Assembly: GCA_964428965.1 (NCBI GenBank)
Contig: CAYSAF010000001.1
Location: 11,242-75,241 of the forward strand
Direction: 5' to 3'
DNA from: Candidatus Woesearchaeota archaeon
GTDB taxonomy: Archaea > Nanobdellota > Nanobdellia > SCGC-AAA011-G17 > VGLX01
Length of the DNA: 64,000 bases
Below the pieces are notes generated by a model. That model saw only the letters and a program-made list of their open reading frames with translations, was not told the origin of the DNA and made no database searches. Below are positions 2,213 to 22,950 of the stretch, piece after piece (position 1 is the stretch's first letter; each line of letters begins with the position of its first letter). A program made the translations under genes and the position numbers.

Positions 2213-3400
2213 ATGATACAAGAATACTTTAAGCTAAGTTTGAGTCACATGAGAACAAGAAGGCTCAGAGCATACCTAACTATGCTCGGAATAGTGATAG
2301 GAATAGCAGCGATAGTAGCGCTAATAACCATATCACAAGGACTGGAAAACGCTGTTTTGCAACAATTCGAAAAAAGGGGAAAAAGCGACATAAGAATATT
2401 ACCAAAAGGACTGACTGGGGCGCCAGCAGCATCAACCATAATAACAACAAAAGACAAAGAAACAGTAGAAAACATAATGGGGGTTGACTACGTTTTTGAG
2501 ATGATAATAACCACAGCAACTGTGGAATACGGCAACGAAAAAAGATTCAGCTCTATAATAAACTACCCTTCTGACCTGCTTGGAAGAGTGTTAGAAGACC
2601 AAGACCTAAAACTGGAAGAGGGAAGAGTATTCAAAAGCGGAGAAAAAGACAGCGTAATAATAGGGAATAAATTAGCCAAGGATTTTTTTGACAAAGAAAT
2701 AAAACTGAGGAACAACATAGTAATAAACGGAAAAAAATTCAGGGTGGTGGGCATACTTGAAAGCCTTGGAGAGTCAACATTCGACAACGCAATAATCATC
2801 CCCCTCGAAACAGGAAGGGAACTATTCAACAAACCAAAAGAACTGAGCGCAATACTAATACACTTCCAAGACGGAGTAGACATAGAAAAAGCAGCAGAAG
2901 ACATAAGAACAAAACTAAAAAGAGCAAGGAACAACGAAAACTTTGACGTATTCACACCGCAAGAACTGCTCAGACAAATAAACACCATACTAGGGGTAAT
3001 ACAGATTGTTCTAGGGGGAATAGCGGGAATAAGCCTAGTTGTCGGCGGCGTTGGAATAATGAATGCGATGTACACAAGCGTAATGGAGAGAACAAGAGAG
3101 ATAGGGGTGATGAAAGCAGTTGGAGCAAAAAACTCTGACATACTAACCATGTTCTTAATAGAATCTGGGCTTATGGGCTTATTCGGAGGACTAATAGGTG
3201 CGATACTGGGAACCGTAGTGGGCTTTGCATTCGGAAAAATAGCGTCACAACTAGGGTTTGGTTTACTGCTGATAAAAATAGAGTGGCAACTGCTAATATT
3301 TGCATTACTATTTGCTTTCTTCGTGGGAGTAATATCTGGGACGCTGCCGGCATTCAGGGCAGCAAGATTGAAACCAGTAGACTCTTTAAGATATGAATAA
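2213..3400 (+). CDS. ABC transporter permease, FtsX/MacB family (tandem paralog)
   Basis: 395 aa, colinear with the previous ORF. Matching segments include RLRAYLTMLGIVIGIAAIVALITIS and MKAVGAKNSDILTMFLIESG. The start is 2 nt after the previous stop. Confidence 0.75.
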   Translation: MIQEYFKLSLSHMRTRRLRAYLTMLGIVIGIAAIVALITISQGLENAVLQQFEKRGKSDIRILPKGLTGAPAASTIITTKDKETVENIMGVDYVFEMIITTATVEYGNEKRFSSIINYPSDLLGRVLEDQDLKLEEGRVFKSGEKDSVIIGNKLAKDFFDKEIKLRNNIVINGKKFRVVGILESLGESTFDNAIIIPLETGRELFNKPKELSAILIHFQDGVDIEKAAEDIRTKLKRARNNENFDVFTPQELLRQINTILGVIQIVLGGIAGISLVVGGVGIMNAMYTSVMERTREIGVMKAVGAKNSDILTMFLIESGLMGLFGGLIGAILGTVVGFAFGKIASQLGFGLLLIKIEWQLLIFALLFAFFVGVISGTLPAFRAARLKPVDSLRYE

Positions 3401-6860: not shown

Positions 6861-7700
6861 TTATAATTTCTGAGAATACATTCTCTTTTCTATGAATTTT
6901 CGCATCTCGTTAACAAAATTGATGGTTTTCTTTCTGTACTCGTCATACTCCTTACCGTCAACCTCTCTCACCTGCCTGTGAATGATCTGCTTCATGGTGT
7001 TATAGTTTTCCCTCATAATGTCGGCATAACGACGCTTGAGAAGACCTTTCCTAACCATCTTTTGCTCAAGCATGTCAGCAACGTGGTCGGGAGAGGGTGG
7101 CACCTCACCTAGAGACATCAGAGCAGAGTGAGCAGCGTCAACAGAAGCCCAATACAAATCAACCATAGCAGAAAGTATGTGCTCCTTAGACCTGCTAACA
7201 GAGGCAGGGGCCATCGTGAAATAAGTATAGATTGATTCACGGGTGGGCCTGATCCTACCGTTATCAAGCAAGGCCTGCAAGGGATCAAAAATGCCTGTAT
7301 CGATCAAAGCAAGACCGTAACGCAAAACATTAATAGCAACCGGGTCACCAGCACGAACATACTCCCAGAAAGAACTCAACTTCATGGACTGAACATGAAG
7401 TCTTTCACCGTCCTTCATATCAACCAATACCTTCTCAACGACGATGCGATAAGTCTGAACCAGGTCACGGGTAAAATTAATGCTGACGTCATCTATAATT
7501 ATGAGGACATCTATGTCTGCTTCCTTAGCCATTTTAGGTGCCTTAGTAGCAGAACCGAACAACACCAAACACTTGATGAAAGGACCAAACTCCTTATAGA
7601 CTCGAGAAGCAAAATCACGGGCTATGTCAAAATGGTCTTTAGGATAGTGAATATCAACATTCCTCTTTCTCTTCTCAATCCTGAACTCCATTATTATCAA
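6861..7700 (-). CDS. Nucleotidyltransferase-domain protein (Pol-beta superfamily) with a C-terminal helical, HEPN-like region
   Basis: 279 aa. NTase signature LVLFGSATKAPKMAKEADIDVLIIID (GS...D.D). The helical C-terminal half contains SVDAAHSAL. Confidence 0.5.
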   Translation of the reverse strand: MIIMEFRIEKRKRNVDIHYPKDHFDIARDFASRVYKEFGPFIKCLVLFGSATKAPKMAKEADIDVLIIIDDVSINFTRDLVQTYRIVVEKVLVDMKDGERLHVQSMKLSSFWEYVRAGDPVAINVLRYGLALIDTGIFDPLQALLDNGRIRPTRESIYTYFTMAPASVSRSKEHILSAMVDLYWASVDAAHSALMSLGEVPPSPDHVADMLEQKMVRKGLLKRRYADIMRENYNTMKQIIHRQVREVDGKEYDEYRKKTINFVNEMRKFIEKRMYSQKL

Positions 7701-7709
7701 CCCCTTTTT

Positions 7710-9557
7710 TCATTCTAAACCAACCCCAGACCAGAAAGGTGTACCCTTCTCAATACCCCTGTACTCCTCACTCGGAGCATACTTACCGACGATGTAACCT
7801 GGAGACCTGGTCCTGCCGAAATAAGAATCCTCAATATCAGTCCACTTAAAACTCCTGTAGATAGGAGAAGTAGCAAGAGCACCCCAGGCGCCGGTCATAG
7901 CAGTGTAAAACTGATCCTGAGCCTGAGCGCCGGGCTCAGCAATCATAGGAGTAGTGAGGTCAGCCTTCCTCAACTTCTTAATGAAACCCTTAAGAGGAGC
8001 GCTACCCTCACCCGGCATCAGGTGCTCGTCATAATAACCGAAATTATCAGATATGTGAACGTGACCAATTATACCCTTCTTGGCTAAAGAATCCACCTCA
8101 TCCAAAAGCCAATCATTAAACCTCTCCTCGTAATGCTCTCTAGTCTCCCCTGCTTCCCTTTTAAAATATTTCTTCCAAGTATAAGCATGACCGATATCAA
8201 AGGTAGCCTTGATGTGATCCTCAGCAATCTTCTTAGCCTCGGATTCAGACATATTTCTGTCCTTAACCAAGCGGTTAGTCATCTCTTTCCTCGCATCTGT
8301 TATTACTTCCTTTAATTCTTGCGGATGGCTACCGTAACCCGTCTCTGGGAACAAGTTCTCGGGAGCGATAAAAAGAGGCTTCTTCAACTTCATATCCTCC
8401 TCGGTATCATAAGCATATATGGCTGCCCTTGCCAAGTTTTTTGCTGAGGCTATTTTTCCGTATTCTTCTATAGGTTGTATCTCGTCTCTTTGCTTCTCTA
8501 TCATCTTCCTTTGTTGGGCGTAAGATGCTGCAGACTCTTCAAGCTGCTTTATATGCGATTCTTGCAGCTGTAACGTCTTTCCTAGATAGCGAAACGGGTC
8601 CTCCAGGAACTCTAGGTATTTTTCGCTTTTTTGAGGGGGCGCACCTCCTACTTCTTTAAGTAGCTGTATTGCTTGGAATTTCGCTAAAGGCTCGTTTGTT
8701 TTTTTAAGGTCCTGGATCATCTTGCTGGAATCCCTCATATAATCATAATCGCCTTTTTCTTTTTCGTAGCCGTATTTCCATCTCATCTCTTCCGCGCTTA
8801 TCCTGCTGAGTTGTTCTGCTAAGATCTTTTGCTTGTAGAACTCCAATGCTGCTTTCTGAGTGTCTTTTATCCCCTCTTCTTTTTGGAATTGTTCCAGGTT
8901 CATCATCGTTATCTTGAATTCGTGTTTCTCTTCATCATACACCGGTTCACCTTTTTGAGGGCCTTCTTTGTACTTGTCAAGTATGGGCAGCTCTGAGTCC
9001 TTTGTGAGGCCTGTCTCAATCCTGCCTGTTCGCTTGTTGACAAGCCAGATTGGCGTTTTTTTGGCTTCCTCCTCGTACATCTCAAACTCCTTGTACTTCT
9101 CAGAAACCTCCCTCGGAAATTCAGCGCCGTGAATAACAACAGGACCGCCACCAGCGACGTCAGCAGCAAAGTCAACTGTACGCTCAATCTCGTGAATAAC
9201 ATTCTCAGAAGCTTGAGGGGTGAAAGCGTTCTCCTTAGGGTCCAAACCTGAAATGCCTTGAACGCCGATAGAAGCGTGAGTGCTTACAACAACCTCGTTA
9301 ATCTTAGAAAGCTGCCTCATAGCTTCCCTCTTATCCTTACCAAACATCTCAGGGTTGGTTTGACCGCCGCCAAGGTTGCCCTTGCCAGTACCAGTAAAAC
9401 CGAGCTCAACAGCAGAGGCACCAGCACGGATGTTAGCCTGCAAGCCGTCTAGAACGTCACCAGCTCCGTGAGAGATACCTATGTCCTTAGCGCTAACCTC
9501 AAGACGTTCCGCAGTTTCCTTATCCAGAGCGTGCCAGTAATCGGATACGAATGCCAT
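7710..9557 (-). CDS. Xylose-isomerase-like (AP endonuclease family 2) TIM-barrel protein with a large central coiled-coil insertion
   Basis: 615 aa. C-terminal IIGHVHISDNFGYYDEHLMPGEGSAPLKGFIKKL matches the sugar-phosphate isomerase/epimerase TIM-barrel metal-binding pattern. The N-terminal section (GGPVVIHGAEF) fits the same fold. About 250 aa of K/E-rich helical sequence sit between the two halves. Confidence 0.45.
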   Translation of the reverse strand: MAFVSDYWHALDKETAERLEVSAKDIGISHGAGDVLDGLQANIRAGASAVELGFTGTGKGNLGGGQTNPEMFGKDKREAMRQLSKINEVVVSTHASIGVQGISGLDPKENAFTPQASENVIHEIERTVDFAADVAGGGPVVIHGAEFPREVSEKYKEFEMYEEEAKKTPIWLVNKRTGRIETGLTKDSELPILDKYKEGPQKGEPVYDEEKHEFKITMMNLEQFQKEEGIKDTQKAALEFYKQKILAEQLSRISAEEMRWKYGYEKEKGDYDYMRDSSKMIQDLKKTNEPLAKFQAIQLLKEVGGAPPQKSEKYLEFLEDPFRYLGKTLQLQESHIKQLEESAASYAQQRKMIEKQRDEIQPIEEYGKIASAKNLARAAIYAYDTEEDMKLKKPLFIAPENLFPETGYGSHPQELKEVITDARKEMTNRLVKDRNMSESEAKKIAEDHIKATFDIGHAYTWKKYFKREAGETREHYEERFNDWLLDEVDSLAKKGIIGHVHISDNFGYYDEHLMPGEGSAPLKGFIKKLRKADLTTPMIAEPGAQAQDQFYTAMTGAWGALATSPIYRSFKWTDIEDSYFGRTRSPGYIVGKYAPSEEYRGIEKGTPFWSGVGLE

Positions 9558-9595: not shown

Positions 9596-11038
9596 TTACC
9601 AACTCAACATGCCGTGAGTCTTCTTGTAAACATCATACAAGGTGTAAACATTATCGCTAACAACCTTAGCTGCCTCAGCTTCCTGCTCCCTTTCATAGTA
9701 AGACAACCTCTTCTTATTACCCGTGCCCCACTTCAGGCCACCAAACAAATCACCGAAGCCCTTAACAATTGAGGTGAAAGGCATCAGTATGTCCTTGGCA
9801 TAAATCTTATTCTTTTCCTCCTTCTTCATCCCAACGTCTTCAGGCTTAACCTCACCAGACTCAACTAGGTACTTCTTCAACTCATCACCGAGAGCATCCA
9901 GGGAAGAGTCAACAGACCTCAAAACCTCCAAATCTTCCAAGTCCTTAGCCTTCTTATGATCATTAATCTCTTTAGGGGTTAAGACATAACCCTGAATAGT
10001 AATCTCAATCCTGCCTGCGTGAACGGCAGCGCGCTGGAACTCCTTCTGAAAAGCCATCTCAGGAAGAGTAACAAACTTGAACTTGACAATGATGCATGGA
10101 ATCTTCTCGGTAAACACACGCTCAACCATACCCCTATTAGTCAACATCTCATAGGTGTTTTTCTTAGCAAACAACTCAAGCTCGATAAGATTTGTCTCAA
10201 AAGCAGTCACAAGCTCAGCAGCACTGCTCTGGGAAAGCTCAAGCTTCTGAATGTTCTTCAAAAAAGGCTTAACCCACTTGGCGTACATCCTAATAGTCTG
10301 GTAATGCTGATTCAAGGCCTTAAGCCTGAAGTTCTTACCCCACTTCAACTCCTTATACGTTTTTTCCTTCCAAACATAATATTCGACTAACTTACTCTTC
10401 AAGATACTCCTAACCCGAGCGTTAATGCCCTCATTCTTCAAAGCGTTAACCTCCTTATCAACACCAGCACTTCCACTCTTAGGATTGATCTTAAAGAATA
10501 GGTCAGGGATTATAACAAAACCAAGCTTACGAGCCAAACCAAAAATAGAAGTAGGGCTTTCTGAGCCGCCCTCAACGAGGTTAGTCCAGATATTCTTCAG
10601 AGTTATCTCAGAAGAATCATCACCCCTGTAGCTTCTCTCGTAATACTCCAAACGCTCATCCATAATCCTAAGCTCCCTAACCATCTGAAAAACGCTACGG
10701 GTCATGTTGCCAATAGTAGCCAGGTGCTGAGAGATACGCTCCTGCTGCTTCTGCTTACGCTCCTCAGCAACGCCGAAGAAGGTAGACATCTCAGTGGCAG
10801 AAAAAACATCAGAAGTCTTCTCAACCTCATAGCTTAGCGTGTTAGGGTGCTGCAAAAAATTCAGAACCCAGAAATAAGAAGGCTCTGCAGAAGCACCCAT
10901 CTGCTCGATGATGAGCTTCTGAGTCCTAACAGGCTTAACGTCAACACCCAAAACCTTAGGCTTCGGAGGAGCCTGCTCCCCGGGACCGAAAAGACTCTCA
11001 GTAGCGCTCTTGAAAAACCTAACCTTAGCCATAAACAC
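9596..11038 (-). CDS. Hypothetical protein (480 aa), no recognisable domain
   Basis: Long ORF with ordinary codon usage and no shadow-ORF competition. Transcribed divergently from the paralog triplet. Confidence 0.5.
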   Translation of the reverse strand: MFMAKVRFFKSATESLFGPGEQAPPKPKVLGVDVKPVRTQKLIIEQMGASAEPSYFWVLNFLQHPNTLSYEVEKTSDVFSATEMSTFFGVAEERKQKQQERISQHLATIGNMTRSVFQMVRELRIMDERLEYYERSYRGDDSSEITLKNIWTNLVEGGSESPTSIFGLARKLGFVIIPDLFFKINPKSGSAGVDKEVNALKNEGINARVRSILKSKLVEYYVWKEKTYKELKWGKNFRLKALNQHYQTIRMYAKWVKPFLKNIQKLELSQSSAAELVTAFETNLIELELFAKKNTYEMLTNRGMVERVFTEKIPCIIVKFKFVTLPEMAFQKEFQRAAVHAGRIEITIQGYVLTPKEINDHKKAKDLEDLEVLRSVDSSLDALGDELKKYLVESGEVKPEDVGMKKEEKNKIYAKDILMPFTSIVKGFGDLFGGLKWGTGNKKRLSYYEREQEAEAAKVVSDNVYTLYDVYKKTHGMLSW

Positions 11039-11137
11039 CTCTTTTACTCCAGATTGAATATATTGGTAATTTATAAATTTTATTAATCCGCAGGAGCATA
11101 GAAAAACTTATTAACCATAATAAGAATTTATAAGAAT

Positions 11138-11638
11138 ATGTTTCCGGGGAAAAAAACGAGTCTCAAGATATTCTCAAACAGGGTTATACAAGACGGACCC
11201 TTCGACCTGAACATGATATACAAAAACCTAAAAAGCTGGTTCCAAGACCACAACTATGTTTACACAGAAGCAGAGAACACAACAAACTTCAAACCCAAAG
11301 GAGCGGAAATAAAACTAAAAATGAAGGGAGAAAGACTTGTAACAGACTACTACAAATTCACAATAAACATAAACTTCCTAATACTAGAAACAGAAAAAGT
11401 AAAAATAAAAGACAAGGTGCTCGACTACGGAAAGCTGGAAGCGAGAGAAGAGGTCTTTATGGAACTTGATTATAGAAAAAAGTTTGAAAAGAGCAGACTC
11501 GCAAAATTCATAAAGTTCCTGTACAACAACTACATAATAAAAAAAGAGATAGAAACCGAATATGCAGGCAAGGCATACAGTGAAGGAATGAGCGCATTCA
11601 AGACTTTGAAGGAAACGGTAGGACTATACACAGAATAA
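11138..11638 (+). CDS. Uncharacterised ~19 kDa protein, paralog 1 of 3
   Basis: 166 aa. Shares a colinear pattern with the next two ORFs: FDL..IYK.L..WF..H.Y; DYYKF.I; E.DY...EK...KFI...Y. Confidence 0.5.
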   Translation: MFPGKKTSLKIFSNRVIQDGPFDLNMIYKNLKSWFQDHNYVYTEAENTTNFKPKGAEIKLKMKGERLVTDYYKFTININFLILETEKVKIKDKVLDYGKLEAREEVFMELDYRKKFEKSRLAKFIKFLYNNYIIKKEIETEYAGKAYSEGMSAFKTLKETVGLYTE

Positions 11639-11652
11639 AAAAGAGGGGATAA

Positions 11653-12159
11653 ATGGCTGATGTAATAGAAAAGATATGGGTAACACCCCCCATGCCCGGA
11701 GGGATGAAAGTAAGACACGTAGGTTACCTAGACCTGGGAACGTTCTACACTTGGCTGGAGAGATGGTTTGAATTTGAGGAATTTTTTGTACCGGACCTTG
11801 AAAGATTCTACGAAGAAAAAACAGAACCAGCAGGGAAAAAAATGGACATAAGGTGGGTGGGAAAAAAGAAGAAAAACCCCTACTACACCTATGTGATTGA
11901 GATAGTATTCCTACTCATAAACGTGAACAAAGTAGAGGTGCAGATGGGAGAAAAAAAGATAAAAATAGAAAAAGGAGACTTCGAATTCAGGTTGGGAGCT
12001 TATCTGGAAAAGGGAATGAAAGGGGCCGGAGTGCTCAGAAACCTCTACGAAAAAGTGATAGCCAAAAAGAAAGTAGACATATACACAAGGGAATGCTACG
12101 ACAAGGTATACAAGCTCCAAGAGGATATGAAAGCATACTTCAACCAATACGTACAATAA
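11653..12159 (+). CDS. Uncharacterised ~19 kDa protein, paralog 2 of 3
   Basis: 168 aa. Same conserved pattern (LDLGTFYTWLERWFEFEEF...YTYVIEI...). Starts 15 nt after paralog 1. Confidence 0.5.
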   Translation: MADVIEKIWVTPPMPGGMKVRHVGYLDLGTFYTWLERWFEFEEFFVPDLERFYEEKTEPAGKKMDIRWVGKKKKNPYYTYVIEIVFLLINVNKVEVQMGEKKIKIEKGDFEFRLGAYLEKGMKGAGVLRNLYEKVIAKKKVDIYTRECYDKVYKLQEDMKAYFNQYVQ

Positions 12160-12196
12160 AAAGGTTTAAATAAAAACAAAACAAATAAAAAATAAA

Positions 12197-12697
12197 ATGT
12201 CAGAAATAGACTATGTGCATACACCATCAAAGCCGTTAAAGGTTGCGCAAGAAGCAACCTTCGACATGCAGCAACTCTACAAGCTGGGAAGAGCTTGGTT
12301 TGACAAACACGGCTATGACTTCTATGAAAAGGAGTACATATCGTCGCAGAAAGAAGAGGCGAAAAACGCATCCATAAAATGGGAAGCAGACAAAAAAGTG
12401 GACGATTACATAAAATTCCACATAGAAGCAAGGGTCAAATTCAAAAACCTGAGAGAGGTGCAAGGCAAAAAAAGGATGATGAACACAGGAGAGGTGAGCT
12501 TCAGCATAGAGGCATACATAGAAATGGACTACGAAGCGAGGTGGGAAAAGGGATTCATGAGCAAATTCATAAGGGGAGTTTATGACACTTTCGTAATAAG
12601 GGGCAAGATAGAAAAAGACAAACAGAGGCTTGACAGGGAAGCAAAAGAATTCTTCCACGAAATAAGAACGTTCCTCAAATGCAACCCCTGCAAATGA
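12197..12697 (+). CDS. Uncharacterised ~19 kDa protein, paralog 3 of 3
   Basis: 166 aa. FDMQQLYKLGRAWFDKHGYDFYEKE...DYIKFHIEA...EMDYEARWEKGFMSKFIRGVYDTFVI is colinear with paralogs 1 and 2. Confidence 0.5.
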   Translation: MSEIDYVHTPSKPLKVAQEATFDMQQLYKLGRAWFDKHGYDFYEKEYISSQKEEAKNASIKWEADKKVDDYIKFHIEARVKFKNLREVQGKKRMMNTGEVSFSIEAYIEMDYEARWEKGFMSKFIRGVYDTFVIRGKIEKDKQRLDREAKEFFHEIRTFLKCNPCK

Positions 12698-12756: not shown

Positions 12757-14127
12757 ATGAATTACAGGGGTATACTAACATATGGGATAGCGGGGCTGAT
12801 ATTCTTAGGAAGCTATACAATGCCTATTATAGCGAGAGCTCAAACAGCCACCAGCTCCGTAAAACAAGAATTCTTTGACACGATAGTTGATTATGCAAGA
12901 AAGCAGGGACTAAATCTTAATAAAATAGAAGAAAAAAACATAGAAATAAAAAGCGAAGTCAAGAGAAAAGATAAAGAAGGAAACTATGAAAAAGTGATGG
13001 GGCTTTTTGACAGACAAACAAGAAAGATACAGATAGAAAGATCAAGCCTCGAAAACATAGCAACGATAGGCATACACGAGATTACACACGATAAACTGTA
13101 TGATGTTGAAGAATCTGAATTGTGGTTTAAAAAAATACACTACAAAGTACAAAAACAAGACGACATATACATAGCGACAGTGAAAGAAGAGCAAGCGAGT
13201 TGGACAATCCCAAAAGAACTACAAAAACTAACTATAAAAGATGAAGGAATGAATAATGAAACCGTAATATACGACGCCAAAGGAAACATGCTAGTAAAAC
13301 TTCAGATGAATAGAATAGAAAGTAAAGATGACTTGACAGTGAGGGAGAAAGGAGCAAACTACGAAATAAACGGCTTACAAGGGGAATGGCACTACGAAAA
13401 ATATGACAATAAGGAATATGAGAATATAAGACTTAGTTACAAACCTTCTGAGGAGATAATGGAATTCAACAATGAAGTAATAGCTAGGATATACGAGCAA
13501 GTATTCGGTGGTTACTACCATGGAAAAAACGTATACAAAATAACTACAGAAAAAGACAAAAGTATACTAGGAAAATCCCTTGCTTACCTAACCTCAACTT
13601 ACAGCCTAACACCTGAACAACAAAAAATATCAGAAAATTCCGAGGGGGCATACATCAGGCTAAACGAACACGGACTATTGAACCTCTTAGAAAAAATACT
13701 CCCAATAGGAGGAAAAACATTCAAAGAGGCTATGGAAGACGTCCAAGATGAACGATTCTCAAAGAGTTTGGCACTTGCATCTGTAATACTAACAGAACAG
13801 GACTTTATAACATTGCTCGATATGTACAACACAAAAGGCAAAGAAGGTGTAATACAACTGCTAAGCGAACAAATCCGAGAGCTTAAAAAAACAAAAAAGG
13901 TAGGAGCTCTTAATGAATATGAAATAATAAAAGAATACCTAAAAAGATTCAACTTGAACGATGAAGAAGCAGAATACGTCATGAGATACACAAAACATGC
14001 AAACTTTACAGACATGATAAAAAGTAAAGAAAAAATAAAGCACATAGAAAGGATAAAACAACAAAACCTAGAAAAATTGATGGAACCATTCAGACCACAA
14101 GAAAAAGAAATAACAAAAGGTTTATAA
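12757..14127 (+). CDS. Secreted protein with an HExxH motif (putative zinc metallopeptidase-like)
   Basis: 456 aa. N-terminal signal/TM segment (GILTYGIAGLIFLGSYTMPIIARAQTA). Contains IGIHEITHDKL (HExxH). Confidence 0.45.
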   Translation: MNYRGILTYGIAGLIFLGSYTMPIIARAQTATSSVKQEFFDTIVDYARKQGLNLNKIEEKNIEIKSEVKRKDKEGNYEKVMGLFDRQTRKIQIERSSLENIATIGIHEITHDKLYDVEESELWFKKIHYKVQKQDDIYIATVKEEQASWTIPKELQKLTIKDEGMNNETVIYDAKGNMLVKLQMNRIESKDDLTVREKGANYEINGLQGEWHYEKYDNKEYENIRLSYKPSEEIMEFNNEVIARIYEQVFGGYYHGKNVYKITTEKDKSILGKSLAYLTSTYSLTPEQQKISENSEGAYIRLNEHGLLNLLEKILPIGGKTFKEAMEDVQDERFSKSLALASVILTEQDFITLLDMYNTKGKEGVIQLLSEQIRELKKTKKVGALNEYEIIKEYLKRFNLNDEEAEYVMRYTKHANFTDMIKSKEKIKHIERIKQQNLEKLMEPFRPQEKEITKGL

Positions 14128-14150: not shown

Positions 14151-14573
14151 ATGAGACAAAAAAAATTGATTGCAGCTGCAGCGATAACAATAATCATGGA
14201 CCAAATAACAAAGATAGTTCTAACAAACAAAAAATACCCAGTACTTGGGTTTGATATAATAAGCTACACAGAAAACACAGGGGCAGCTTTCAGCATACTA
14301 CCCGGGCAGAGGTTGCTGTTAATAGCAGTAGCCTCAGCAGCACTGATAGTACTCCTCTATTATGCAACTAAGATAAGAGAAAAAGAGAAAAAACTACAAA
14401 TCCCAACAGGGATGCTAATAGGGGGCATAGCAGGAAACCTAATCGATAGGATACTACTAGGCTATGTTAGGGACTTCATAAACCTAGAGATATGGCCTAC
14501 GTTCAACATAGCAGACACAGCCATGTTCATAGCAATAATACTCCTGATAATACATCTCTTTAAGAAAAAATAA
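14151..14573 (+). CDS. lspA: Lipoprotein signal peptidase (signal peptidase II)
   Basis: 140 aa with 4 TM helices. Carries the SPase II boxes: YTENTGAAFSILPG (NxGAAF), IGGIAGNLIDRILLGYVRDFI (GNLxDR...VxDF), WPTFNIADTAMFIAII (FNxAD). Confidence 0.8.
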   Translation: MRQKKLIAAAAITIIMDQITKIVLTNKKYPVLGFDIISYTENTGAAFSILPGQRLLLIAVASAALIVLLYYATKIREKEKKLQIPTGMLIGGIAGNLIDRILLGYVRDFINLEIWPTFNIADTAMFIAIILLIIHLFKKK

Positions 14574-14574
14574 G

Positions 14575-14727
14575 ATGGACAAAAAAATACTAAAAATTTA
14601 TAAAAGGCTGTTGAAAAAGTTCGGCAAGCAGGGATGGTGGCCGGTAACAGACGAGAAAAACGCTCAATTCGAAATAGAGATAGGAGCGATACTGACACAA
14701 TATATTAGTTTTACTTATTATTTTTAG
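14575..14727 (+). pseudogene. N-terminal fragment (first ~42 aa) of an endonuclease-III-related HhH-GPD gene (COG2231-like), interrupted by the integrated element
   Basis: MDKKILKIYKRLLKKFGKQGWWPVTDEKNAQFEIEIGAILTQ matches the N-terminus of the family. Compare the intact copy at 14724..15476 (LFEMYGSQGWWP...IGAVLAQN). The frame then runs into unrelated YISFTYYF* and stops. The missing NTSWKN...C-terminus lies at 28076..28618. Confidence 0.7.
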
Positions 14728-15476
14728 GATTCTAATATTTTGGCTTTCCTAATGTCAACCCTTCCTTTCTTACCTCCTGCTTTCACATATTTTTTATATA
14801 AAGGACAATTATGATATTCCCCTTTCTTTGCATAATACCTCTTGGCATGCTCTACTATAAGGGCATGATATTCCTGATAGGTTGTAAGGTCAGACTTTAA
14901 GTTGCCCTCAAACAAGGCTTTTATCTCATCATACTTTGCATCTTCCTTAATAAAGCCCAGATTTGCAAATATCCTCTTTGTGTAGGCATCCACAACAAAA
15001 GTAGGGGTCTTAAAGGCATATAACAGCATAGAATCCGCAGTTTCGGGTCCAATACCCCATATATTCAATAATTCTTCCCTTTTGGGTATATAGGTAAGGG
15101 TTAGGAAAAACCTTGTAAACTCCTTTAATTTCCTTGCCTTCTGGTTGAAGTATCCAGCTGGCTTTATGGCTTCTTTAAGCTTATTGTTGTCTAATCCCAT
15201 GAGGGCTTCTGGGTTGAGGGCTTTTAATCCCTTAAGGTTGTTTAATGCCTTTTCTGCGTTCACCCATCCTACGTTTTGAGCGAGCACAGCACCAATGCAG
15301 ACCTCATAGATTTGGTTTGTTGTCTTAGGAAATTCATAATTTCCAGGATGATAACCACCATAATTCTTACTACCTTTCCTATAAGTCACTTCCCCCAAGT
15401 CCAGCAGAGGCCACCAACCCTGTGAACCATACATTTCAAATAAATCATCGTATACATCTTTAATGGTTTTAATCAT
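14724..15476 (-). CDS. Endonuclease-III-related HhH-GPD protein (COG2231-like), intact element-borne copy
   Basis: 250 aa. GSQGWWP, IGAVLAQNVGWVNAEKALNNLK, AGYFNQKARKLKEF, LLNIWGIGPETADSMLLYAF, VVDAYTKRIF and EYHALIVEHAK are colinear with the split host gene, with roughly 50% identity. Confidence 0.7.
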   Translation of the reverse strand: MIKTIKDVYDDLFEMYGSQGWWPLLDLGEVTYRKGSKNYGGYHPGNYEFPKTTNQIYEVCIGAVLAQNVGWVNAEKALNNLKGLKALNPEALMGLDNNKLKEAIKPAGYFNQKARKLKEFTRFFLTLTYIPKREELLNIWGIGPETADSMLLYAFKTPTFVVDAYTKRIFANLGFIKEDAKYDEIKALFEGNLKSDLTTYQEYHALIVEHAKRYYAKKGEYHNCPLYKKYVKAGGKKGRVDIRKAKILES

Positions 15477-16402
15477 ATTATTACCCCTCTAAATTTATTG
15501 AATCGTTTATAGCATTTAAAAATGTTAAATAAGTTTGGAAGACTTTCTTTTGATATTTCTTGATAAGTCCTTCCGGTAATTCCTTGAATAAACTTATCAC
15601 TTACATCAAAACCTATGTCCCATAATTCACCATTTTTTACCTCTTCAATAAACTCTTTGATGATGGTATTTAATGTAAAGGATTTGTCATTTGACATAAC
15701 TCTCCAGAAAAAATAAGTGTTTAAAATTCTTTTAATATCCCTTACTTCGTCCTCTGAAAATAGCCATCTTCCTTTCAATAAGGCATCATTCTCTTTTTTG
15801 AAAGAATTTAACTTTGAACTTAACTCTTTATATTTTTGTATAGATAAGTGCATCCCTTTAATTTTCTCTTCTATGTCTTTTATCTCTGCTAAATTATGTG
15901 GTTTATCAATAAAATCTTCTTTTAACATATCATATGTTTTCTTTGGCTTACTCTGTTCTTTAGCTTTTTCTAGTATTAACTTATAGGCTTTGATTCTTTT
16001 TTCAATAAGCTTAATTCTTTGACTAAAAAAAGAACACATTAAATCTATTTTTTGGTTGATTTCCTTTACTTGTTCCTTAAAGATTAATTCAATCCTTTCA
16101 TATAGTTTATCATAATTAAGGTCAAATTTATATCCTTCACCAGACCTCCTATTAATTTTGTCCTTGTTGCTTACCAGGACTATTCTCTCCTTTTCTAAGA
16201 GATTCCTATATTTATTGTATGTTCCTTGTGAGATAAACCCTTGTTGTTCATCTTTAAGTTCTATTAAGGATGGTTTTTTATTACTATTCTTAACAATTAA
16301 TTCAGTAGTATCACATCCTACCCCAATTGTGGCAACAATCATTGCTACACTTGGAAGTTCCCAAAGGGATTTATTTTTAATTATACTATTTTTGCTATTC
16401 AT
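15473..16402 (-). CDS. Hypothetical protein (element). Coiled-coil rich.
   Basis: 309 aa. 4-nt overlap with the downstream endoIII-like gene suggests an operon. K/E-rich helical middle region. Confidence 0.45.
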   Translation of the reverse strand: MNSKNSIIKNKSLWELPSVAMIVATIGVGCDTTELIVKNSNKKPSLIELKDEQQGFISQGTYNKYRNLLEKERIVLVSNKDKINRRSGEGYKFDLNYDKLYERIELIFKEQVKEINQKIDLMCSFFSQRIKLIEKRIKAYKLILEKAKEQSKPKKTYDMLKEDFIDKPHNLAEIKDIEEKIKGMHLSIQKYKELSSKLNSFKKENDALLKGRWLFSEDEVRDIKRILNTYFFWRVMSNDKSFTLNTIIKEFIEEVKNGELWDIGFDVSDKFIQGITGRTYQEISKESLPNLFNIFKCYKRFNKFRGVII

Positions 16403-16472
16403 ATAATTAAATAATTATATATCCTATATATACTTTTTGGTTTTATGTCTCATTAACCGATTTCTAAGATAG

Positions 16473-16497
16473 TTTAGTTATATGTTTTTTAACTAAA
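16473..16497. promoter_or_regulatory. Inverted repeat (TTTAGTTA-n9-TAACTAAA) in the divergent promoter region, candidate RHH operator
   Basis: Perfect 8-bp arms. Lies about 35 nt upstream of the RHH ORF, between divergent gene sets. Confidence 0.3.
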
Positions 16498-16528
16498 ATA
16501 TTATTAATACCCTAATAATTATATTATT

Positions 16529-16681
16529 ATGGAAAAATTATTCACAATGAAGATGGACGATGAGCTTTACACTAAGCTTCGGAAGATTGCCTTTAAAAGA
16601 AATGTTTCAATGGGGTTATTCATAAGGAACGCCCTAAACCAAGAAATTAGGAGATTAAATCAAAATGAGCAAAATGTTTGA
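16529..16681 (+). CDS. Ribbon-helix-helix (CopG/Arc/MetJ-like) DNA-binding protein
   Basis: 50 aa (below the ORF-track cutoff). MEKLFTMKMDDELYTKLRKIAFKRNVSMGLFIRNALNQEIRRL is a classic beta-strand + two-helix RHH pattern. Confidence 0.5.
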   Translation: MEKLFTMKMDDELYTKLRKIAFKRNVSMGLFIRNALNQEIRRLNQNEQNV

Positions 16682-16875
16682 TTTGTTAAATCCATTGACA
16701 AAATATCTTGTCAATCGAGCAATGCAGGATAACCTAATTGCAAATGCAGAAGAATTATCAAAAGTGTCAAAAATGTTTAAGGATAATAAAAGGGAGGATG
16801 GTTTAGCTGTTACAAGCTCTCAGAGTTAAGCTGTTAGGAAGTTTCTAAAATTATAGGCCGTTAGGAGGTAGGCAG

Positions 16876-17067
16876 ATGGAGGATTGCTTTAAATTTGAGG
16901 ATTTTATTTGTTACCTGAATGATGATAATTCTAAGGTAACCGCATATGTAGATATTATTTACACGAATTCTTCGGTAATTAAATTTGTCACTAAAGAAGG
17001 CAATTTGATTACATTACCTTGGCATAGAGTTCTTAAAGTAAAGCAGAGGGGTGGTAATGATGAGTGA
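16876..17067 (+). CDS. Small hypothetical protein (element)
   Basis: 63 aa. Overlaps the primase-helicase start by 17 nt. Confidence 0.3.
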   Translation: MEDCFKFEDFICYLNDDNSKVTAYVDIIYTNSSVIKFVTKEGNLITLPWHRVLKVKQRGGNDE

Positions 17068-18313
17068 GTTGACACCCTTTGATGTAGCAAAACAAATAAT
17101 GGAAGAGAATATTTTTCTAACATTAGAAAAAACTGAAGAGATTTACATTTATAAAAATGGGGTTTATTGCAAACAAGGTGATACTTCGATTAAAAAAAGA
17201 GTGCAGGAAATATGGGGGGATAAAGCAACTACACATAAAGTAAATGAGGTAATTAATCATATCAAAAGAATGACCCTAAGAGATGTTGAGGATGACGCTG
17301 TACCCATTAGTTTGATTTGTGTGGAGAATGGTATCTTGAATATATATACGCGTGAATTAAAACCACATAGCCCAGATGTTATATTTTTCAATAAACTGCC
17401 TATAAAGTATAATCCTGATGCTAAATATACAAAGTTCAAATGTTTTATAGAAGACTTGGTATCAAAAAATGATGCTGAAACATTACAGGAGTTTATAGGA
17501 TATTGTTTACGAAGAGACACAGCTTACCAGAAAGCGTTAATGTTGTATGGTAAGGGGAACAATGGTAAATCCACACTCACTAAGATTTTGGAAGGGTTTT
17601 TGGGAAAACACAATTATACATCAATACCCCTTCAGCAATTAGAAGAAGATAAATTTATAGTAGCAAATCTACATGAAAAAATGGTTAATATATCCGCAGA
17701 TTTGCCAAATAGGATATTATATGAGACTTCAATAACAAAGGCACTAATTACAGGTGATAGTATTACTGCCCAACGTAAATTTGGTCATCCATTTAGTTTC
17801 GTCCCATATACCAAACTTATTTTTAGTTGTAATAGACTTCCAGAGACTAAAGATTTGAGTAGCGGTTGGTTTAGAAGATGGATTATTATAAGTTTTCATA
17901 ATACTTTCAGAGAAAATGCTCAATCAAATAAAGAATTAGAATTTATGAATGAGGAAGATATGTCAAGCGTATTGAATTGGGCATTAGATGGCTTAGACCG
18001 TTTAAGACAAACTGATGGTTTTCTAATAAGTGAGCGTGAAACAAGAGAAATATGGATGAAACATAGTGATAATGTGTCTGCGTTTATTCAGGATAATATA
18101 GTGAAGGATGTAAATTCACACCTAATAAAAGAGGAACTTTATGATAAGTATACCTCTTTTTGTGAAAAACAAGGAAGTGTTCCTTTAGAGAGTAATGCCT
18201 TCCATAGGAAATTGAAAGAGAAGATGGATGTTATTGATTATCAACCATCTGTAGATGGTAAGCAAGTACATGCATGGAAAGGTATTAATTTTAAAGATAC
18301 TCCACCATGGTAG
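17051..18313 (+). CDS. D5/P4-type primase C-terminal SF3 helicase-domain replication protein
   Basis: 420 aa. Walker A LMLYGKGNNGKST. Walker B/motif C region KMVNISADLP...LITGDSITAQRKFGHPFSFVPYTKLIFSCNRLP, and WFRRWIIISF. This is typical of phage/plasmid primase P4-family (COG3378-like) proteins. Confidence 0.7.
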   Translation: MVMMSELTPFDVAKQIMEENIFLTLEKTEEIYIYKNGVYCKQGDTSIKKRVQEIWGDKATTHKVNEVINHIKRMTLRDVEDDAVPISLICVENGILNIYTRELKPHSPDVIFFNKLPIKYNPDAKYTKFKCFIEDLVSKNDAETLQEFIGYCLRRDTAYQKALMLYGKGNNGKSTLTKILEGFLGKHNYTSIPLQQLEEDKFIVANLHEKMVNISADLPNRILYETSITKALITGDSITAQRKFGHPFSFVPYTKLIFSCNRLPETKDLSSGWFRRWIIISFHNTFRENAQSNKELEFMNEEDMSSVLNWALDGLDRLRQTDGFLISERETREIWMKHSDNVSAFIQDNIVKDVNSHLIKEELYDKYTSFCEKQGSVPLESNAFHRKLKEKMDVIDYQPSVDGKQVHAWKGINFKDTPPW

Positions 18314-18319
18314 CTCAAA

Positions 18320-18346
18320 TAATTAGGAATTAGGATAATTAGGATT
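18320..18346. repeat. Three tandem copies of (A)ATTAGGA immediately downstream of the replication gene, candidate iterons
   Basis: aattaggaattaggataattagga within an AT-rich intergenic spacer. Confidence 0.3.
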
Positions 18347-18388
18347 TTATTATATTTAAGTTAAATAAAATATATTATAAATTAAATT

Positions 18389-18988
18389 ATGGAAAAACCC
18401 AATTATCCTCATTGTAGAATGAAAATGGAAACAAACCATGACGCAAACCAAGAAAAAACATGCAAGAAATCTCTTGAATATAAAAAAAATGTAGGGAGGT
18501 TCTCAAGGTTGACCCAGGAAGAGTTAAGCCGAATAGCAAGAAAAGGTGGTCAAGCAAGGTCAGAACGAAAGAGGCTGTCATCTCAATTAAATCCCATAAA
18601 ATCGGGCAACGCAACATCGGTATTCAATATTGCAAAGTGTGATGACTGCTTAATTAAGGTTGATTGTGATTTCTATAGGCAAGGCTCAGCCTGCCAAGTT
18701 GAGATTAATATCAGAAGGAACATAATCAGGCAATTCAAGGCATTCCAGGGCGATAATCCAAAAGACATGCTTATAGAGATTATGAGGGTTTATAAAAAGC
18801 TTGAGCAGATGGTAGAAGAAGACAAATCTTTCTATAAATATACACAATTATTCCATATGCTTCTGCATCTTTATAGGATGAAGTTTTGTGAGGGGCATTT
18901 TGATAAAAAGATTCTGGAAGATGGGCTTAATATTTCTTTAGAGGTCAAGCGGATTATGAAAGAGCTACGGGGGAGTGCCAAAAAATAA
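18389..18988 (+). CDS. Hypothetical protein (element)
   Basis: 199 aa. Basic N-terminal region (ARKGGQARSERKR). No clear domain. Confidence 0.4.
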   Translation: MEKPNYPHCRMKMETNHDANQEKTCKKSLEYKKNVGRFSRLTQEELSRIARKGGQARSERKRLSSQLNPIKSGNATSVFNIAKCDDCLIKVDCDFYRQGSACQVEINIRRNIIRQFKAFQGDNPKDMLIEIMRVYKKLEQMVEEDKSFYKYTQLFHMLLHLYRMKFCEGHFDKKILEDGLNISLEVKRIMKELRGSAKK

Positions 18989-19050
18989 TGAACCGTAGGT
19001 AAATAATCCTGCTATATGGGTGCTTCAAAAAAAATGTAATTTAAGACACC

Positions 19051-19332
19051 TTAATCCTTTTTAATTTCTGACAATATTTTGTTTGCCTGCTGTAAGACTT
19101 TCTTGCCTTCTGAAGTTAATTTATAAAACTTATAGTTCCTGTCGTCTGGATTGACACATTTGATTAACTTTTTTCTCAGCAACTCATTCAAAACCCTGCT
19201 TACATGGGACCTGTACATTCCAGTTTGCTTTTCAATCTGGGCAGAGATTTTCTGACCTTCCTGTAAAACCCGAAGTATACCTAAACGATTTTTTGCTCTT
19301 AATACATAGGAGACTACATTCTGTTTACCCAT
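19051..19332 (-). CDS. Winged-helix transcriptional regulator (ArsR/MarR-like)
   Basis: 93 aa. RLGILRVLQEGQKISAQIEKQTGMYRSHVSRVLNELLRKKLI matches a recognition-helix + wing pattern. Confidence 0.6.
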   Translation of the reverse strand: MGKQNVVSYVLRAKNRLGILRVLQEGQKISAQIEKQTGMYRSHVSRVLNELLRKKLIKCVNPDDRNYKFYKLTSEGKKVLQQANKILSEIKKD

Positions 19333-19422
19333 GAGTTACCATACACATACCATAATTAAAACAAAGTATTACCAAATGAGTTACCAAAAATATTAAATAC
19401 GACAACATATTATATAGATATA

Positions 19423-19833
19423 ATGGAGAAGAAAAAGGCGGTTTGGATAGGAGTATTAGGATTCTTAACCTTTGTATTCCTTCTGATAGTTATATTTGGA
19501 GATAGTCCGGAAGAAGCGGCAGAAAAACAAAGACTTCTCACAGAGCAAGCACAAAGAGAAGATGCTATAAGAGCTGAACAAAAAGCCAACCAATGCCCAA
19601 AGCAAGGCATATTACAATCTGATTGGGATTATTGTGTTGAGTTGTGTGTGTTAGGAAAGAGTGATGCTTTGATTAACGAAGAACAATGTGAAAAAATCTG
19701 TGATACAACTGAGTATTACCAAGGTAGTGAGGGTTTGCAGAAAAGAATTATGAATTATAAATGTAAAAAGTGTGGAGAATGCACAGAGGAACAATTAAAA
19801 GAAATGAATGTAAGTAATGAGGTAGAAGAATGA
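19423..19833 (+). CDS. Cys-rich membrane-anchored or secreted protein (element)
   Basis: 136 aa. N-terminal TM (VWIGVLGFLTFVFLLIVIF). 10 Cys in the C-terminal half. Confidence 0.4.
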   Translation: MEKKKAVWIGVLGFLTFVFLLIVIFGDSPEEAAEKQRLLTEQAQREDAIRAEQKANQCPKQGILQSDWDYCVELCVLGKSDALINEEQCEKICDTTEYYQGSEGLQKRIMNYKCKKCGECTEEQLKEMNVSNEVEE

Positions 19834-20432: not shown

Positions 20433-20567
20433 TATCTAAATACCAAATTAAATCATCCCGATTTTTCGGAATCATTTCCCATTTAAAACCGGTAATTCTT
20501 ATTAAAAGGGTAATATAATTTCATTGAATTACTATAACATTTATACCCAGAGGGGAGCCAATCAGGG

Positions 20568-21161: not shown

Positions 21162-21355
21162 AAAGCTAAGGATTTCTCCTTAGCATCATGTTCTATCAGA
21201 GCGTCAGCTCCTTAAATTTAAAAAGAGTGATAAAGAAATAGACTTTTTTAACAAACACTACTTATTTAACAAAGCTGTTTTAAAAACGACAAGTTAAAAA
21301 ACATAAAGTAACCTCTTTTTATGGAAGATGGGGGAAGTAGGTTATAGGAGGGTAT

Positions 21356-22282: not shown

Positions 22283-22428
22283 GGGGGTTTAAAAATACAA
22301 AAACCATGTCTATTGTATACTGTTTGTATTTGGTAATTCATACATCTAATCAAAACTCACTAAGCTTCCCCTGTCCTTTAGCCTTCTTATGATTCCGCCA
22401 AGTCATCTAAGACTTACGGAGAGATAAA

Positions 22429-22923: not shown

Positions 22924-22950
22924 ATTTATTTGCATTCTAATGCTATCCTT

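Follow-up and report, generated by a model that had tools for sequence, protein, structure and literature searches.

We find that three consecutive small genes of a DPANN archaeon (Nanoarchaeota/Woesearchaeota), here called par1, par2, and par3, are homologous and belong to a conserved chromosomal, lineage-specific Woesearchaeota/Nanoarchaeota block that comprises the small-family gene(s), lspA, and genes for a 480-aa protein, a TIM-barrel enzyme, and a nucleotidyltransferase. The locus, which lies in the 64-kb stretch of DNA that was analyzed (the window; Table 1), is a real, uncharacterized gene module. The explanation that best accounts for it as a whole, to which we assign a probability of about 0.4, is that the triplet arose within this conserved block from one par3-like gene and that its products assemble with the 480-aa protein, which would act as a stalk.

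Table 1. Genes and candidate promoter elements of the locus, in window coordinates
Feature	Position	Strand	Description and basis
Pol-beta-type nucleotidyltransferase-like protein	6861..7700	-	279 aa; weak Pfam matches to Polbeta and NTP_transf_2
AP_endonuc_2 (xylose isomerase-like) TIM-barrel protein	7710..9557	-	615 aa; Pfam E = 3.5e-14
480-aa protein	9596..11038	-	α+β core with helical-hairpin insertion; ORF, public protein P0014
Divergent promoter spacer	11039..11137	.	99 bp; sequence and box conservation in five genomes
par1	11138..11638	+	166 aa, small family, orthogroup 1; ORF, family HMM E = 7e-58
par2	11653..12159	+	168 aa, small family, orthogroup 2; ORF, BLASTP, family HMM
TTTAAATA box	12165..12172	+	center ~29 bp 5′ of par3 ATG; sequence
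par3	12197..12697	+	166 aa, small family, orthogroup 3; ORF, BLASTP
456-aa protein, between par3 and lspA	12757..14127	+	hydrophobic N terminus, HEITH motif
lspA, lipoprotein signal peptidase II (Peptidase_A8)	14151..14573	+	Pfam E = 2.8e-32

The three paralogs and their history

BLASTP relates par1 to par3 (E = 2e-21, 28% identity across 127 aa), par2 to par3 (E = 3e-7), and par1 to par2 (E = 5e-6), well past chance, and an HMM of the family matches exactly three ORFs in the window, par1, par2, and par3 (E = 7e-58 to 2e-66). These searches bear out the homology proposed in an earlier note on this DNA. Of the motifs that it described as shared, all are found in par1 and par3 (FDL/FDM..[IL]YK...WF..H.Y, DYYKF/DYIKF, and E.DY...EK...KFI..Y), whereas par2 retains only the first, in the degenerate form LDL..FY...WF. 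A deletion in par2 takes out the DY...W/EK loop. Since loss of the DY...W loop is common to all par2 orthologs examined and is specific to that orthogroup, the copies are non-equivalent.

Homologs of the small family fall into three clean orthogroups whose members are 46–82% identical to their own window copy, whereas identity between paralogs is just 20–28%. The par1-par2-par3 order is invariant across genomes with the triplet and is kept even where the 480-aa protein is 31–54% identical to that of the window (31% in L004 and 54% in L005; L007 and L013 also retain it). All three proteins stay full-length, and their evolutionary rates resemble those of the 480-aa and TIM-barrel proteins. Judged from these comparisons, the triplication is old, as the earlier note had suspected. 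The copy nearest to the single-copy form of other Woesearchaeota, a form that is probably ancestral, is par3. The starting point was probably a lone par3-like gene that neighbored lspA and the 480-aa gene; this par3-like gene was probably duplicated twice in the window's clade to give three fixed, non-equivalent orthogroups.

Promoters and gene arrangement

The 480-aa gene diverges from the par1-par2-par3 array and is followed, 38 bp downstream, by the AP_endonuc_2 TIM-barrel gene; the 279-aa nucleotidyltransferase-like gene closes the minus-strand set. The AT-rich spacer between the 480-aa gene and par1, previously read as a divergent promoter, contains a TTATTAA box (11108–11114) centered 27 bp 5′ of the par1 ATG, with a conserved GAAA purine run ahead of it, and a minus-strand TTTATAAA box (11070–11077) ~42 bp 5′ of an ATG of the 480-aa gene at 11032. 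Across five genomes the flanking sequence drifts and the two boxes themselves are retained, which upholds that reading. The par2 gene starts 14 bp past the end of par1, behind a Shine-Dalgarno-like GAGGGG run (11643–11648); par1 and par2 are probably co-transcribed from the conserved TATA promoter, which faces that of the 480-aa gene. A possible internal promoter is the TTTAAATA box upstream of par3, which is conserved solely in L105 and L106, both close relatives.

Fold and relation to known families

The profile searches that the earlier note had called for assign the paralogs to no well-known family. There was no Pfam match to par1, par2, or par3 at E ≤ 1, no consistent family when 59 small-family members were scanned one by one, no match in NCBIfam or PADLOC, only noise in PHROGs (E ≥ 0.039), and nothing at E ≤ 10 when PDB chains were searched with the small-family profile. 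The 480-aa protein likewise went unrecognized in Pfam, NCBIfam, PADLOC, PHROGs, and PDB sequences, and literature searches found neither family described. In distribution, both resemble "Module 98," a set of 51 protein families that are widespread in Pacearchaeota and Woesearchaeota, largely missing from other lineages, and for the most part functionally uncharacterized (Castelle et al., 2021; PMC8204110); that study gives no structure, paralogy, or neighborhood analysis of these two families.

Members of the small family are soluble cytoplasmic α+β proteins of ~165 aa (range 156–182 aa), and no transmembrane segments were found in the paralogs, the 480-aa protein, or the TIM-barrel protein. 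In the AlphaFold model of par1 (pLDDT 89.5), the sheet comprises five long antiparallel strands, against which one helix from the N-terminal part and two from the C-terminal part are packed; this predicted architecture is generically TBP-like/KA1/helix-grip-like. Strongly conserved aromatic residues, together with Glu44, Asp111, and Lys158, appear to sit between the sheet and the helices.

Among the closest known structures are the KA1 domains of the kinases MARK/BRSK/Chk1/AMPK-alpha, defined by a two-layer β-α-β4-α fold, and TBP-like modules such as phosphoglucomutase domain 4, the adaptin appendage platform, and the METTL16 VCR, although sequence identity to these is 5–13% and there is no profile match. 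KA1 domains are found at the C terminus of Ser/Thr kinases, where their role is autoinhibitory or phospholipid-binding. In contrast, the small family is archaeal and stand-alone, joined to no kinase or enzyme (no kinase domain occurs among the 150 representatives listed), and its members are ~60–75 residues longer than KA1 domains, with much longer strands and an extra C-terminal helix. A second such class consists of the SRPBCC/StART/Bet v1-like helix-grip proteins (Lam2/Ysp2, Ups1, Aster, PR-10, and polyketide cyclases), whose fold is defined by an antiparallel sheet that wraps a long C-terminal helix and which have seven strands rather than five and no detectable sequence relationship to the small family.

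A ligand cavity is the defining feature of these SRPBCC/StART/Bet v1-like families. Could the paralogs be independent ligand binders of this kind? On this view, a small hydrophobic or amphipathic ligand (for instance, a host isoprenoid lipid acquired by scavenging) would be bound in every monomer, enclosed by the sheet and the long C-terminal helix; the paralogs would have specialized for different ligands, and the neighboring genes would be irrelevant or loosely tied to them via membrane biogenesis (lspA). We consider this possible, if unlikely. The very long strands (12–19 residues) and the 30-residue C-terminal helix of the model fit such a role, the positions of the conserved Tyr and Trp residues, of Glu44, and of Lys158 along the strands have a parity that would turn their side chains toward the core, as a polar pocket would require, the small family is also found away from the 480-aa gene, and the small gene lies ~400 bp or less from lspA in 13 of 17 informative loci. 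However, the START, Bet v1, and SRPBCC families of Pfam go unmatched even at E ≤ 1 across the 59 members, and the polar residues are near-invariant over ~1,900 clusters, which speaks against ligand diversification at these positions.

The 480-aa protein

The 480-aa protein has an α+β core that is interrupted by a ~190-residue helical hairpin, and it has a conserved C-terminal motif, Y..[YF]KK.HGML.W. Foldseek returned no match to it at E ≤ 0.001. On comparison with prefoldin, ESCRT-III/CdvB/PspA, SMC arms, and periplasmic adaptors such as EmrA, matches to known α-hairpin proteins were confined to the hairpin, with TM-scores ≤ 0.24. The hairpin is inserted into an α+β domain rather than standing alone as an ESCRT-III or prefoldin unit would, and the protein has no signal peptide or transmembrane segment. 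A conserved N-terminal amphipathic membrane-targeting helix was also considered and rejected, since only 6% of homologs beat shuffled nulls.

In the models, the 480-aa core and the small family have the same order of secondary-structure elements. Full-length profiles of the two families align in hhalign with a probability of 2%. When the coiled coil is spliced out, the score is 29.2 over 142 collinear columns (P = 5.5e-4), above all 50 null comparisons, which comprised reversed profiles (11.5–12.7), column shuffles (13.8±3.5, with the highest value of all, 23.2), and block shuffles (16.0±1.7, maximum 19.9); the hhalign probability for the spliced core is just 30–36% (P = 4–5e-4, 102–142 collinear columns). 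When the small-family HMM was run against 7,675 ORFs, 480-aa proteins made up 5 of 10 sub-threshold matches at E<1 and 21 of 51 at E<10, always in one register, an enrichment that equals a single observation because the 480-aa proteins are mutually homologous. On balance, we lean toward the 480-aa core being a remote homolog of the small family. The 480-aa protein then probably carries a very diverged fourth copy of the α+β module, with the coiled-coil hairpin inserted between strands 2 and 3.

The conserved block

The neighborhood was surveyed in 85 species loci centered on the 480-aa gene; related loci were sought with the 480-aa alignment and with a single-copy small-family sub-alignment. 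The TIM-barrel gene adjoins the 480-aa gene in 69 of these 85 loci, the nucleotidyltransferase co-occurs with it in 37, and 36 have lspA close by; only 18 have a small-family gene at a distance of 10 kb or less. A conserved neighbor of both the small family and the 480-aa gene is lspA. No diverged small-family gene was found beside lspA in the 22 loci without a recognized one. At most loci with a single copy, that gene and lspA point toward each other, and the small gene shares no transcript with any gene of the block. The genes whose linkage the earlier note had asked about are present and linked in related genomes, but linkage of the small family to the 480-aa gene is not universal. Tandem pairs or single copies also occur in unrelated housekeeping contexts (L098 and L103). 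At L103, where the family member P0209 is labeled "Patescibacteria," the partner genes are absent from the locus.

The TIM-barrel gene follows the 480-aa gene on the same strand, as had been noted. By eye it had resembled no known family, but its product matches Pfam PF01261 at 53.6 bits (cutoff 31.1), and a helical insertion of ~290 aa divides the match into two stretches. The lspA product, a polytopic membrane protein, matches PF01252 (112.3 bits against a cutoff of 25), has 21 hydrophobic windows above the transmembrane threshold, and contains GNLIDR and FNIAD motifs, to which we take the catalytic aspartates to belong. The 456-aa gene is a lineage-specific addition inserted into the block: it occurs in L105 and L106, which are close relatives, and in none of the 85 loci.

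In small streamlined genomes, gene order may reflect inherited synteny rather than shared function. The block could persist without functional coupling: a housekeeping protein with no relation to the 480-aa, TIM-barrel, and lspA genes would have expanded into the triplet in this lineage, and the 480-aa core would resemble it by analogy. The block does sit amid core genes, among them those for PEP synthase/PPDK, GlnRS, and ribosomal proteins, the small gene and lspA vary in their relative orientation, 67 of the 85 loci have no small gene near the 480-aa gene, the family has undergone tandem duplication elsewhere (L098, L099, and L101), and the hhalign probability is low. We nonetheless find this account doubtful. 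Adjacency survives at ~40% identity of the 480-aa protein, where non-functional synteny usually decays, the small gene and lspA have moved as a pair away from the 480-aa gene at L052, and the collinear profile similarity exceeds every shuffled or reversed null.

It seems quite improbable that the paralogs are TBP-like or KA1-like nucleic-acid-binding factors, for example in chromatin or RNA binding, possibly tied to repair-type neighbors (an HhH-GPD glycosylase, the AP_endonuc_2 barrel, and the Pol-beta-like nucleotidyltransferase). The three window copies are basic (pI 8.9–9.3), the family median is 8.5, and the neighbors belong to Pfam families that include repair enzymes. However, the 10–90% range of pI in the family is 5.6–9.4, so basicity is not a family trait. 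HhH-GPD is near in only 9 of 85 loci, the only NCBIfam match of the TIM barrel, a weak one, is to a sugar epimerase rather than endonuclease IV, and the nucleotidyltransferase resembles minimal MNT-type enzymes rather than PolX. With no endonuclease IV or PolX signature, a base-excision-repair neighborhood finds weak backing at best and was set aside.

A mobile, viral, or defense cassette, which might be suggested by the integrated element nearby (~15.5–28 kb, with a D5-like primase and a tyrosine integrase) and by integrase fragments downstream of the L005 triplet, is effectively refuted: the paralogs and the 480-aa protein have no PADLOC or PHROGs matches, 2.9 million viral contigs contain no relatives, the GC content of the cluster (0.41–0.45) matches that of the host, unlike that of the low-GC element, and at least 502 species genomes conserve the block in a syntenic place on the chromosome.

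Discussion

If the triplet and the 480-aa protein act together, how might they do so? In our preferred explanation, the small proteins would be binding or adaptor modules that form homo-oligomers where the gene is single-copy and a par1/par2/par3 hetero-oligomer in the window's organism; that the three are hetero-oligomer subunits is plausible. A cytoplasmic complex would result, in which the small proteins bind one another and also the 480-aa stalk protein through its related core; the TIM-barrel enzyme, encoded in the same operon as the stalk, may be recruited or regulated by this complex. We infer that the proteins physically assemble, and the same goes for any connection to lspA or the TIM-barrel enzyme. 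Since the small family lies within 10 kb of the 480-aa gene in a minority of loci and also occurs in unrelated contexts, an obligate complex with the 480-aa protein is not required.

A more ambitious version, which we regard as rather improbable, is that four diverged copies of one α+β module (par1, par2, par3, and the 480-aa stalk) build an undescribed cytoplasmic machine of Woesearchaeota/Nanoarchaeota that is coupled to the coiled-coil-bearing TIM-barrel enzyme and, via lspA adjacency, to membrane or lipoprotein biogenesis. Its cargo could be, for example, lipids obtained from the host or lipoprotein precursors, in organisms that have no membrane-lipid synthesis of their own.

Woesearchaeota and related lineages are abundant, as yet uncultivated symbionts with reduced genomes. 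Lineage-specific proteins of unknown function account for much of their distinctness from other archaea (PMC8204110). Both families now have a confident fold, conserved residues, and an evolutionary history that leads from a single gene to a fixed triplet, as well as a probable distant kinship and a conserved gene block. Should the proposed assembly form, a reduced genome with little non-essential content would harbor a new multi-subunit module, which makes the locus well suited to structural and biochemical study. Otherwise, the small family just adds a member to the large TBP-like/helix-grip fold class, a result that helps annotation and is unsurprising.

Gene models

All ORFs described in the earlier note are present, at the same coordinates and on the same strands, in the ORF list of the 64-kb window. 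Public gene callers agree on these genes: the public proteins P0134 and P0001, each of 166 aa, are 100% identical to genes called here, P0134 to par1. For the 480-aa gene, the public call (P0014) is a protein of 478 aa that begins at the ATG at 11032, and this is probably the true start.

Results

Three tandem paralogs of an ancient duplication

The three consecutive small ORFs (par1, par2 and par3; see table) had been judged homologous by eye, and pairwise BLASTP places their relationship far past chance (par1–par3, E = 2e-21 with 28% identity; par2–par3, E = 3e-7; par1–par2, E = 5e-6). An HMM of the family, run over the 64-kb window, matches exactly these three. The motifs that the earlier note described as shared are carried by par1 and par3, but par2 is an outlier: it retains the N-terminal LDL..FY...WF motif, and a 7-residue deletion, seen in every par2 ortholog examined, takes out the DY...W loop.

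Table. Features of the window and their positions
Feature	Position	Strand	Length	Remark
MacB/FtsX-type permease	1024-2211	+	395 aa	after CARDB/DUF11 surface-protein gene
MacB/FtsX-type permease	2213-3400	+	395 aa	tandem paralog of the preceding
TIM-barrel gene	7710-9557	-	615 aa	ORF
480-aa gene	9596-11038	-	480 aa	ORF
par1	11138-11638	+	166 aa	ORF
par2	11653-12159	+	168 aa	ORF
par3	12197-12697	+	166 aa	ORF
456-aa gene	12757-14127	+	456 aa
lspA (signal peptidase II)	14151-14573	+
HhH-GPD gene	14724-15476	-		full-length; flanks low-GC block; 53% identical to L106 ortholog
Low-GC block	~15470-28620
D5-like primase/helicase	17051-18313			in low-GC block
SNase + lamin-tail nuclease	22951-24333	-		in low-GC block
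Tyrosine integrase with zinc ribbon	26217-28013	-	598 aa	in low-GC block
HhH-GPD paralog	28142-28618	+		N-terminally truncated; other flank; 48% identical to first HhH-GPD
tRNA	43086-43171	-	86 nt	Rfam
tRNA	62492-62598	+	107 nt	Rfam

The suspicion that the duplication was old proved well founded. The 59 closest homologs fall into three clean orthogroups (n = 13, 31 and 15) whose members are 46–82% identical to their own window copy, whereas the paralogs are mutually just 20–28% identical. Triplets in the fixed order par1-par2-par3 occur at the related loci L004, L005, L007, L013, L105 and L106, and in the triplet genomes the 480-aa protein is 31–84% identical to that of the window (L004, 31%; L005, 54%; L106, 75%; L105, 84%). 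At L005, par1, par2 and par3 are 42%, 59% and 48% identical to the window copies, and the TIM-barrel protein 53%. As all three copies are retained full-length and diverge at rates similar to those of the 480-aa and TIM-barrel proteins, all are under purifying selection. The triplication is thus ancient and fixed, with copies that are not equivalent. Where other Woesearchaeota have a single-copy gene, the par3 profile gives the best score in 11 of 13 cases; to judge from these sequences, a par3-like ancestor likely underwent two duplications within one subclade. Tandem pairs have arisen independently elsewhere (L098, L099 and L101).

A large, lineage-restricted family with an α+β fold

As the earlier note had it, par1–3 and the 480-aa protein resemble no known family. 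Pfam yields nothing for the three paralogs at E ≤ 1, and for the 480-aa protein only one match below threshold, to Phage_int_SAM_4 (E = 0.062; 14.2 bits, cutoff 27). Scanning the alignment members one by one against Pfam (59 small-family, 70 480-aa) gave no consistent family; NCBIfam, PADLOC and PHROGs gave no meaningful match to either family, and neither profile matched any PDB chain sequence. The same claim did not hold for the 615-aa protein, which is, as had been recognized, a TIM barrel and belongs to Pfam AP_endonuc_2 (xylose isomerase-like; E = 3.5e-14). Neither it nor the neighboring nucleotidyltransferase has solved relatives by sequence.

An exhaustive HMMER search of 1.84 billion cluster representatives with the small-family profile returned 1,954 proteins at E ≤ 1e-3, of which 1,317 reach E ≤ 1e-10. 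Among the 150 matches listed, nearly all are single-domain proteins of 156–182 aa and none is fused to a known domain. Homologs are labeled Candidatus Woesearchaeota, Pacearchaeota, Nanoarchaeota or Nanoarchaeia. These labels, together with a 107-nt tRNA in the window, place the source among the DPANN archaea. The small family is large, lineage-restricted and unannotated. One 210-aa member with an N-terminal extension (P0209; L103, 8001–8633) lies on a contig labeled "Patescibacteria group bacterium", next to an SMC/Rad50-like ATPase and without any of the window's partner genes. Either this MAG is mis-binned or the family reaches outside Nanoarchaeota.

The AlphaFold2 model, made from the 59-sequence alignment, is a confident, generic α+β fold (pLDDT 89.5, pTM 0.83) with the order β1(8–22)-α1(24–37)-β2(41–52)-β3(55–67)-β4(72–90)-β5(93–110)-α2(120–133)-α3(135–164). 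Set beside KA1 domains, phosphoglucomutase domain 4, adaptin appendages and TBP-like proteins, the predicted structure would fall in a fold class already known, a likeness that would not establish a specific family relationship. Conservation over 149 diverse members is highest at E44 (99%), Y71 (97%), Y129 (93%), W34 and K158 (both 90%), followed by Y28 (89%), Y40 (87%) and D111 (81%).

Possible kinship with the 480-aa protein

Public gene calls start the 480-aa gene at the ATG at 11032, giving 478 aa (P0014). Its AlphaFold model (pLDDT 82) begins β(38–47)-α(51–63)-β(71–81), continues with helices of 52 (86–137) and 60 (207–266) residues that hold a small helical tip between them, and goes on to five strands (283–353) and helices. 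Comparison of the full-length profiles was negative (probability 2%). With residues 86–271 removed, hhalign aligned the 480-aa profile to the small-family profile of 149 sequences over 142 collinear columns (score 29.2, P = 5.5e-4, probability 30%); the C-terminal half alone gave 36%. All the nulls fell clearly below this score: reversed profiles reached 11.5–12.7, 24 column shuffles 13.8 ± 3.5 (maximum 23.2) and 24 block shuffles 16.0 ± 1.7 (maximum 19.9). In an unfiltered search of 7,675 six-frame ORFs with the small-family HMM, 480-aa proteins made up 5 of the 10 extra matches at E < 1 and 21 of 51 at E < 10, always pairing HMM positions ~55–115 with the C-terminal sheet; since these proteins are mutually homologous, the enrichment is one family-level observation. 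We lean toward true homology of the 480-aa core with the small family, the alternative being convergence on the same fold pattern.

A conserved neighborhood and divergent promoter

The linkage in related genomes that the earlier note set as a check is seen as a conserved chromosomal block across Woesearchaeota and Nanoarchaeota loci. At least 502 GTDB species representatives carry a gene of the 480-aa family. At 85 loci of this gene, with flanks to ±10 kb where the contig permitted, we found the TIM-barrel gene at 69, a nucleotidyltransferase at 37, lspA at 36, a small-family gene at 18, PPDK at 14 and HhH-GPD at 9. The 480-aa and TIM-barrel genes therefore form the tight core of the block. 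lspA usually lies directly upstream of the 480-aa gene on the opposite strand, and in 13 of 17 informative loci having a small-family gene that gene is within ~400 bp of lspA; at L052 the two are displaced jointly, ~6.5 kb from the 480-aa gene. When the single-copy small gene served as seed, 12 of 17 loci had the order small gene, lspA, 480-aa gene, a count biased by a seed alignment that came from linked loci.

In the window and close relatives, a lineage-specific 456-aa gene sits between par3 and lspA. Its product, found outside the window only in the closest relatives, L105 and L106, has a hydrophobic N terminus, an HEITH (HExxH-type) motif and no Pfam match. The window's lspA encodes a bacterial-type lipoprotein signal peptidase II (Peptidase_A8, E = 2.8e-32; 112 bits, cutoff 25) with NTGAAF, GNLIDR and FNIAD motifs; according to a 2025 paper on archaeal lipoproteins (PMC12462473), earlier work had identified no Lgt or Lsp homologs in archaea, and the archaeal signal peptidase is still to be found. 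At the Woesearchaeota loci L001 (7657–7995, minus strand) and L002 (7582–7905, minus strand), which have no small-family gene nearby, the space from lspA to the 480-aa gene is occupied by the gene of a 107–112-aa protein with no relationship to the small family. This protein starts with GIF..LFKKK, continues with a proline-rich linker and ends in a coiled coil.

The two halves of the TIM barrel are parted by a long, helix-rich insertion of ~290 residues, and other genomes encode separate coiled-coil proteins, small and acidic, between the 480-aa and TIM-barrel genes (L001, 9951–10604; L003, 9408–9953), which together suggest that the two proteins may associate through coiled coils.

The divergent promoter with TATA-like elements proposed in the earlier note is conserved: when the spacer between par1 and the 480-aa gene is aligned across five genomes, two boxes stand out amid variable sequence. 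On the par1 side, GAAA(A/G)..TTATTAA has its TTATTAA at 11108–11114, centered 27 bp upstream of the par1 ATG, the spacing expected for an archaeal TATA box of a leaderless or short-leader mRNA. The opposite-strand box, TTTATAAA (11070–11077), is ~42 bp upstream of the ATG at 11032. Because par1 and par2 are only 14 bp apart and a GAGGGG run lies 5 nt ahead of the par2 ATG, the two are probably co-transcribed. A TTTAAATA box ~29 bp upstream of par3, conserved in close relatives only, could be an internal promoter of par3.

Discussion

What might these proteins do? We propose, with a probability of roughly 0.4, that the copies assemble with one another and with the 480-aa stalk core to form a cytoplasmic complex, which may work together with the co-operonic TIM-barrel enzyme. 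No transmembrane segment or signal peptide was found in the small proteins. This proposal and its rivals are not all mutually exclusive. It is possible, if unlikely, that the small proteins are independent StART/SRPBCC-like ligand binders; from strand parity and helix position, most of their best-conserved residues should face the sheet-helix interface, a placement compatible with a buried polar network as well as with a pocket. That the synteny reflects no functional coupling we consider rather unlikely. The small family is also found in unrelated contexts (L098 and L103), so linkage is frequent but not obligatory. Nucleic-acid binding is improbable; par1–3 are mildly basic (pI 8.9–9.3), and the family-wide range is 5.6–9.4. 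A mobile or defense cassette is scarcely credible; the cluster is set amid housekeeping genes of the chromosome (MacB/FtsX permeases, PEP synthase/PPDK, signal peptidase II and HhH-GPD glycosylase) and has a window-typical GC of 0.41–0.45, the low-GC block with integrase and D5-like primase starting only at ~15.5 kb.

Since dozens of Pacearchaeota- and Woesearchaeota-specific families of unknown function have already been noted (Castelle et al., 2021; PMC8204110), the existence of lineage-specific unannotated families is unsurprising. The small family is a new sequence family inside a known fold class; new here are its structural class, the evolutionary course of the triplication, the conserved block with lspA and a probable kinship to the 480-aa protein. 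The system would become considerably more interesting if it were shown to form a multi-subunit assembly or to handle lipids.

Other features of the window

The low-GC block (GC 0.31–0.34 versus ~0.40 for the window) looks like an integrated element, for which we found no convincing att repeats; it also holds a DUF4352 protein and many ORFs without a Pfam match. Both tRNAs in the table were missed by ARAGORN and found by Rfam. By its length, the 107-nt tRNA could carry an intron, which would suit an archaeal genome.
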